Source: Escherichia coli (GTDB lineage Bacteria; Pseudomonadota; Gammaproteobacteria; Enterobacterales; Enterobacteriaceae). From it: a stretch of 64,000 nucleotides of DNA. A program made the translations under genes and the position numbers. The stretch lies in assembly GCF_036507355.1 (NCBI RefSeq), contig NZ_AP027877.1; one strand, given 5' to 3'. Of this stretch, positions 40,634-40,990 are shown piece after piece. The notes beneath the pieces were generated by a model, which worked only from the letters and a program-made list of their open reading frames with translations, was not told the origin of the DNA and made no database searches. Numbering within the stretch: the first letter of the stretch is position 1; each line of letters opens with the position of its first letter.

Positions 40634-40990
40634 AAGGAGTCCCTCCGCACTGTCTGAAACAGTACAGAAATGTCTTCAGGCGTGGCGAAGCCTTACCTGA
40701 AGGTAATAAAGCTGAGCAGGGACGTTAAAACGTCACGGCCTTACGCATCCGGTAACGCCGTGAAAAGACGGGCTTACCGGAAAAGTTTTAATCTCCGTCG
40801 AGGGAGAGGCGTGGGATCAGGTTCCATATAACCTCCGGTAAGTGAAAAAAGCGCCGCAAATAATAAGGAGAATCCAATAATATTCGTAGCATCTATGGCG
40901 ATATAATACCTGCTGGCAACTAAACCAACGATAAACCAGACTTTACCCATTGCTGAATGCACGGGTAAAGTTAGGCTCAAATAATTAAAC
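40634..40990 (-). promoter_or_regulatory. mgtA promoter and Mg2+/proline-responsive 5' leader
   Basis: Long untranslated leader containing mgtL between the treR-divergent promoter region and the mgtA start. Confidence 0.55.
40774..40827 (-). CDS. mgtL: mgtA leader peptide MgtL (17 aa, proline-rich)
   Basis: Minus-strand frame encodes [17 protein letters not shown] in the mgtA 5' leader. Confidence 0.7.

Follow-up and report, generated by a model that had tools for sequence, protein, structure and literature searches.

The genes mgtA and treR are divergently oriented in the Escherichia coli sequence analysed here, and they are separated by an intergenic gap of 378 bp. What does this gap contain, and how could it control the expression of mgtA? 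The interval 40634-40990, which falls inside the gap, had been predicted from the raw sequence to be the mgtA leader, with an intact, proline-rich leader ORF (mgtL) of 17 codons and a known attenuation system that senses Mg2+ and proline. Positions are those of the window, by which we mean the whole 64-kb stretch of DNA that was analysed. Our answer, which we regard as practically certain, is that the locus is the chromosomal E. coli mgtL-mgtA leader, a region that places the Mg2+ importer MgtA under two layers of control. All of the defining features of the mgtL-mgtA attenuator and of the RNA family RF01056 that can be tested in a sequence were found, and the sequence holds nothing that speaks against this identity.

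The regulated gene, mgtA, is an intact ORF of 898 amino acids on the minus strand (37937..40633). Its product was assigned as a Mg2+-translocating P-type ATPase, which imports Mg2+, by the NCBIfam equivalog TIGR01524 (1601.6 bits against a cut-off of 610.75). On the plus strand, treR (41012..41959) is a 315-codon ORF that encodes the trehalose repressor TreR (TIGR02405, 590.7 bits). We used megablast to compare the 461-nt stretch 40560-41020 with complete E. coli genomes, and it was found in 5425 of the 5426, with an identity of at least 99% in 4152 of them and of 100% in many. The features annotated under these matches in E. coli are mgtL, mgtA, and treR, and on the same sequence RefSeq gives the name “mgtA regulatory leader peptide MgtL”. 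The leader is already known, and this part of the window is ordinary E. coli chromosome.

A single genome among the 5426 had no match of any kind to the 461-nt query. As a separate observation, only the treR-proximal 129 nt of the query matched E. coli GCU-H1 (NZ_CP178558.1, 648652-648780), and the mgtA leader of that strain appears to be missing or rearranged. We also considered the transposase that is annotated between mgtA and ridA in strain SK1144; it is absent from the window, which is collinear with K-12 there.

The leader ORF itself, mgtL, consists of 17 codons and a stop on the minus strand (40774..40827). It was identified by translation, begins with ATG, and is annotated as mgtL in identical E. 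coli sequence. The original prediction quoted a peptide of 17 residues and gave no strand; translation of 40827..40774 on the minus strand, which is the strand of the mgtA leader, reproduces that peptide exactly. The N-terminal stretch of MgtL reads M-E-P-D-P-T-P-L-P and includes the acidic and proline-rich motif EPDP. Its Shine-Dalgarno sequence, GGAGG (40832..40836, minus strand), is located 4 nt before the ATG. The ORF was also correctly placed in the leader upstream of mgtA. It is located within the treR-mgtA gap, and its stop lies 140 nt before the mgtA ATG at 40633. The Shine-Dalgarno sequence of mgtA, GGAGGG (40641..40646, minus strand), was read from the sequence and is kept in the alignment with Salmonella enterica subsp. 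arizonae.

Upstream of these elements lies a predicted binding site for the response regulator PhoP. The PhoP box GGTTTATCGTTGGTTTA (GGTTTA-TCGTT-GGTTTA; 40921..40937, minus strand) is a direct repeat that overlaps the -35 region, and it is the sole match to (T/G)GTTTA-N5-(T/G)GTTTA in the 64-kb window, where 0.04 matches were expected. Together with its flanking bases it agrees at 18 of 19 positions with the Salmonella mgtA PhoP box, TGGTTTATCGTTGGTTTAA, given in PMC3335776. The likely -10 hexamer, TATTAT (40903..40908, minus strand), was read from the sequence and is separated from the box by 12 nt. PhoP promoters of “architecture I”, a group that includes mgtA, have one box in the direct orientation 12 nt before the -10 (PMC3335776), and the promoter described here agrees with that definition in both motif and spacing, although PhoP binding is a prediction.

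A generic sigma-70 scan found no -35/-10 pair at the mgtA promoter. This is expected of an activator-dependent promoter, here a PhoP-dependent one without a -35 hexamer, and we therefore inferred the start site from the geometry of the PhoP box instead. Transcription would begin at 40896-40897, which would give a transcribed 5′ leader of ~264 nt (40634..40897, minus strand) with a 5′ end that is uncertain by 1-2 nt. The length is based on the promoter geometry and on the 264-nt Salmonella mgtA leader of PMC3335776. The predicted span of 40634-40990 does contain the leader but is wider than the transcribed region, ~40634-40897; it also takes in the PhoP-dependent promoter and ~50 nt more of intergenic DNA.

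In a permissive Rfam scan, the only match within 39500-42000 was RF01056 (“Magnesium-II”), at 40727..40842 on the minus strand, and it was found again in a scan of the whole window. This family is the Mg2+-responsive element composed of stem-loops A and B. The match is full length (model positions 1-115 of 115) and scores 125.8 bits against a gathering score of 40, with E = 2e-26. When the leader was folded together with the mgtA start codon (267 nt), the energy was -87.4 kcal/mol (z = -4.3 compared to shuffled sequences), and the minimum-free-energy fold of the leader is A + B.

Stem-loop A (40773..40842, minus strand) is supported by both the Rfam structure and the minimum-free-energy fold, with its 5′ arm at 40842..40832 and its 3′ arm at 40783..40773. 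It encloses the mgtL Shine-Dalgarno sequence, which forms part of the 5′ arm, and nearly the whole ORF, and it has an inner hairpin at 40807..40792. The 3′ arm also contains the mgtL stop codon (TAA, 40776..40774). Stem-loop B (40735..40761, minus strand) consists of 10 pairs with one G.G mismatch in E. coli. In the alternative stem-loop C (40749..40780, minus strand) the 3′ arm of A pairs with the 5′ arm of B, so that C and A + B are mutually exclusive. Stem C alone has a folding energy of -16.0 kcal/mol, and the value is -19.5 kcal/mol for stem C in the segment that runs from the A 3′ arm to the B 3′ arm with the A 5′ arm unavailable. The leader thus has the layout of a 1:2 / 2:3 / 3:4 attenuator.

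We modelled the presence of a ribosome by constrained folding. When a ribosome footprint was placed over the mgtL stop, helix A was lost and B was kept. With the footprint at the early proline codons, on the other hand, the model still closed helix A around the blocked stretch, which is sterically unrealistic. Because helix A is drawn around the footprint, this second calculation does not by itself show a shift to C.

The same arrangement was found in other enterobacteria. A DNA-pattern scan of a collection of species-representative genomes gave 78 loci, and 74 of them carry an ORF of 16-18 codons that reads M-[DE]-P-[DE]-P-T-[PSR]... and ends in R (usually FR). These mgtL-like loci came from Escherichia, Salmonella, Citrobacter, Klebsiella, Raoultella, Enterobacter, Kluyvera, Leclercia, Kosakonia, and other genera. 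The remaining four loci are outside the family and have no stop within 30 codons; they serve as a chance control. The search pattern fixed most of the first six codons, and the independent evidence consists of the ORF length, the C-terminus, and the RNA arms. In nearly all of the loci with enough downstream sequence, an ORF resembling the start of MgtA (M[FL]KN[IFL]TRQL...) follows 135-167 nt after the mgtL stop.

An alignment of 72 distinct leaders from ~20 enterobacterial genera was used to assess the RNA structure. For the A + B structure, 95% of the cells were paired, compared to 37-51% when the partners were slid by 1-3 columns. The paired fraction was 97% for stem A and 98.5% for stem B, and 6 of the 10 pairs of B had changed on both sides in a compensatory manner. 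The outer 7-bp helix of stem C was 96% paired with little covariation. The covariation is weak because the arms are nearly invariant, and the support for stem C is therefore conservation rather than covariation.

The same collection contained an enterobacterial-type mgtL leader in the public contig CACSKA010000007.1 (L041:6536-6665), which is labelled Chryseobacterium sp. 18061. Citrobacter sp. 18056 (L051), which belongs to the same project, has exactly the same peptide (MDPDPTPHHRWSNIFSR), and the public Chryseobacterium assembly is probably mislabelled or contaminated.

In the two-layer model, the first layer would act at the promoter: according to the motif and the literature, low external Mg2+ would be signalled through PhoQ to PhoP, which would activate transcription from the box at 40937..40921. 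Activation of the mgtA promoter by PhoQ/PhoP at low Mg2+ has been documented (PMC11552253; PMC3335776). The second layer would act within the ~264-nt leader, which would fold either as A + B or as C; here the anatomy was seen in our sequence while the behavior is taken from published work. The leader has been shown to adopt A + B at high Mg2+ and C at low Mg2+, and efficient translation of mgtL favors the OFF state and premature termination (PMC11552253).

When Mg2+ and prolyl-tRNA are adequate, ribosomes would translate M-E-P-D-P-T-P-L-P and continue through to the stop in the 3′ arm of A. That arm would thereby become unavailable, B would form, and transcription would stop before mgtA (OFF). 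At low cytoplasmic Mg2+, or when prolines are decoded slowly, ribosomes would stall or drop off early at EPDP, and the 3′ arm of A would pair with the 5′ arm of B to form stem C. The termination signal would then be hidden and RNA polymerase would enter mgtA (ON). The early drop-off would be caused by “intrinsic ribosome destabilisation” at EPDP and opposed by EttA and EF-P. Previous studies described drop-off driven by EPDP and its rescue by EttA in E. coli (PMC11282234) and found that both Mg2+ and proline control elongation into mgtA (PMC3335776). The original wording, “Mg2+/proline-sensing attenuation”, summarises the published models fairly (PMC11552253, PMC11282234, PMC3335776), with the sensing itself coming from the literature. 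By analogy with the identical K-12 sequence, for which a response to Mg2+ and proline via mgtL is known (PMC11282234, PMC11552253), mgtA would be expected to respond in the same way here.

Published work still debates if the sensor of Mg2+ is the RNA itself or the ribosome that translates mgtL (PMC11552253). It could be speculated that the leader is primarily a true riboswitch, where Mg2+ binds the RNA and stabilises A + B while mgtL is secondary and senses only proline or osmotic stress. Such a role is consistent with the Rfam classification of the element as a Mg2+ riboswitch aptamer and with the strong conservation of A and B. It is also consistent with probing data showing alternative folds that depend on Mg2+ and with the finding that, for Salmonella mgtA, Mg2+-dependent folding alone is enough to modulate Rho termination in vitro (PMC11552253). 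However, recent work credits the Mg2+ response mainly to the elongation phase of mgtL translation, to which the prolines and the acidic residues, a need for bL31, and the effect of EttA all point (PMC11552253, PMC11282234). Moreover, the length of the ORF and its N-terminal motif are kept in every enterobacterial leader that we recovered, the pattern having partly forced the first six codons. A leader that is primarily a riboswitch is unlikely, though it deserves serious attention, and the riboswitch and mgtL-translation models are compatible rather than exclusive.

In Salmonella the stop in the mgtA leader is Rho-dependent. A scan for intrinsic terminators on the minus strand of 40634-40897 found none, and its sole match was inside treR. 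The lack of a canonical intrinsic terminator in the leader fits factor-dependent termination. In addition, C exceeds G over much of the leader, with a C/G ratio of up to 2.1 at leader nt 76-135, and this composition is compatible with a rut site.

Another possibility is that the E. coli leader uses the same RNA switch but that its attenuation is not Rho-dependent, and that it operates instead by pausing or arrest, by RNase-mediated decay, or through another factor. This idea comes from a study in which the Rho mutant R66S was examined by ChIP-qPCR and the Rho termination score at E. coli mgtA was 1.0 (PMC5499598), a result that is restated in PMC11552253 and PMC12360218, and from a review according to which the mechanism known from Salmonella “may not be conserved in E. 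coli” (PMC12360218). The authors of the R66S study considered two readings, either that Rho is not involved or that the mutant is insensitive at the mgtA site (PMC5499598), and if the mutant is blind there its score does not count against Rho. The two features of the leader just described, that is, an undetectable intrinsic terminator and an excess of C over G, also argue against a stop without Rho. So do the Term-seq data, in which E. coli mgtA is one of the 5′ UTRs that have 3′ ends at known sites of Rho regulation (PMC7815308), the Rho-dependent terminator that has been modelled in E. coli (PMC11282234), and the alignment of the E. coli and Salmonella leaders over their full length. We consider attenuation by a mechanism other than Rho to be possible but doubtful. 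It is rather improbable, in our estimation, that the E. coli mgtA leader combines a Salmonella-like switch and MgtL with a stop that takes place without Rho, or without the Rho RNA-binding site altered in R66S. Since the leader is identical to that of K-12, the window adds no evidence on the Rho question.

The weakest alternative, an untranslated ORF that arose by chance in a structured RNA, can be set aside with hardly any reservation: chance short ORFs are common (91 ORFs of at least 20 amino acids in 6.5 kb), but a GGAGG Shine-Dalgarno sequence stands 4 nt 5′ of the mgtL ATG, 16-18 codons are kept in 74 enterobacterial loci while the C-terminal half varies freely, the four chance matches from the out-group have no stop within 30 codons, an overlapping ORF of 34 amino acids is, in contrast, not conserved, and the reading has already been refuted by published translation data for the identical sequence, since E. 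coli mgtL translation, toeprints, and reporter fusions are on record (PMC11282234).

The overlapping ATG ORF (40788..40892, minus strand) uses an alternative frame and starts ~6 nt into the inferred transcript. We rejected it as a second small protein because other Escherichia species and other genera either lack it or have an ORF of a very different length; the ORF at 40892..40788 is probably a product of chance. An antisense ORF of 53 amino acids was also seen at 40670..40831.

Outside the mgtL-mgtA leader, the window from the tRNA-Leu gene leuX (16892-16973) to its end is collinear with K-12 4443786-4496490 in reverse orientation, with ~98% identity. The exceptions are the idn operon and chpSB, which are absent, and the yjgL region, which is divergent. 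At window 18188-18279 the ~5-kb K-12 idnK-idnDOTR (L-idonate) cluster (4490102-4495190) is missing and its flanks join across ~90 bp. At window 59259-59388 the K-12 chpS-chpB toxin-antitoxin pair (within 4448397-4449032) is absent, and ~130 bp are found instead. Window 29583-32183, which corresponds to the K-12 yjgL region, has an identity of 90.9% compared to ~98% in the rest of the collinear window, which suggests a divergent or recombined allele.

Window 1-16887, which adjoins leuX (minus strand), is rich in IS elements, and K-12 has nothing equivalent at this position. The matches to other E. coli are piecewise, with IS66, IS3, and IS1 transposases, nanM/nanC, and an HNH endonuclease among the matching features, and none of the complete E. 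coli genomes has a single region that covers 80% or more of this DNA. The segment looks like a mosaic genomic island associated with leuX.

Several other RNA matches were observed in the window. Ysr276 (“Yersinia sRNA 276”, antisense type) gave a full-length Rfam match of 174.7 bits at 22988-23182 on the minus strand. By collinearity with K-12 this match is inside the pepA coding region, on the opposite strand, and its score may reflect the conservation of pepA. Rfam naRNA4 matched four times on the minus strand (24016-24091, 24114-24189, 51018-51095, and 57268-57346). The tandem pair at 24016-24189 is in the holC-pepA intergenic region by K-12 collinearity, and blastn segments overlap there; we read the naRNA4 matches as repeats of the REP/BIME type. 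A second leader-peptide attenuator, that of pyrBI with its leader peptide pyrL, is expected at window ~35725-35859, as calculated from the collinearity with K-12.

Compared to E. coli K-12 MG1655 mgtL (b4702)-mgtA (b4242), the leader described here encodes an identical MgtL peptide. The alignment with the characterised leader that had been proposed as a check gave 0 differences in the 264 nt of the inferred leader. All arms of A, B, and C are present, and the functional stem-loops have not diverged. The PhoP box, the -10 hexamer, both Shine-Dalgarno sequences, and the gene order (treR divergent from mgtL-mgtA) are identical as well. The two strains differ at three positions in 461 nt: window 40969, which is upstream of the PhoP box; 40916, in the spacer between the box and the -10; and 40574, inside mgtA. 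No known element is touched by these differences. Across the whole of mgtA there are 30 substitutions and 2 amino-acid changes relative to K-12 MgtA. The flanking genes differ from K-12 by 1.8% (treR) and 1.1% (mgtA), and from this coding divergence ~3.4 differences were expected in the leader where 0 were observed (P(0) ~0.03). A leader identical to that of K-12 between neighbors that differ by 1-2% fits strong purifying selection, and it teaches nothing new. The value of the result is that of a sanity check, in that a regulatory ORF of 17 codons was correctly recognised from raw sequence.

The mgtA leader of Salmonella enterica, the characterised prototype of RF01056, is similar in its PhoP box (18 of 19 positions), in the 12-nt spacing, in its length of ~264 nt, and in the arms of A, B, and C, the conserved distal hairpin, and the mgtA Shine-Dalgarno sequence. 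Its MgtL is likewise encoded by 17 codons, reads M-[DE]-P-[DE]-P-T-P-L-P-R, and ends in FR. In contrast, residues 2 and 4 and the C-terminal half differ in the MgtL of S. enterica subsp. arizonae, MDPEPTPLPRWRVFLFR, while its leader and that of E. coli align over their full length, including the distal hairpin and the mgtA Shine-Dalgarno sequence. Salmonella and E. coli also differ in the G.G mismatch of the E. coli stem B and in indels between stem B and the distal hairpin, and Rho dependence has been shown for Salmonella but questioned for E. coli.

The corL-corA leader of E. coli and Salmonella has a uORF inside stem A, an OFF state (A + B) and an ON state (C and D), and Rho-dependent termination (PMC11552253). 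The logic is the same as that of mgtL-mgtA, although corL-corA is another locus outside the window and encodes another peptide, which has a single proline. The mgtA leader is a textbook case in which promoter control by PhoP/PhoQ and an RNA switch coupled to translation act together to keep cytoplasmic Mg2+ constant. In the classical attenuators (trpL, hisL, pheL, and pyrL), the rate at which a short ORF is translated selects between alternative hairpins. The mgtA leader resembles them in that a short leader ORF chooses the RNA fold. On the other hand, the classical attenuators have an intrinsic terminator hairpin with a U-tract, which the mgtA leader lacks, and they respond to starvation for a single amino acid, whereas the mgtA leader would read both Mg2+ and proline through the stability of the translating ribosome.
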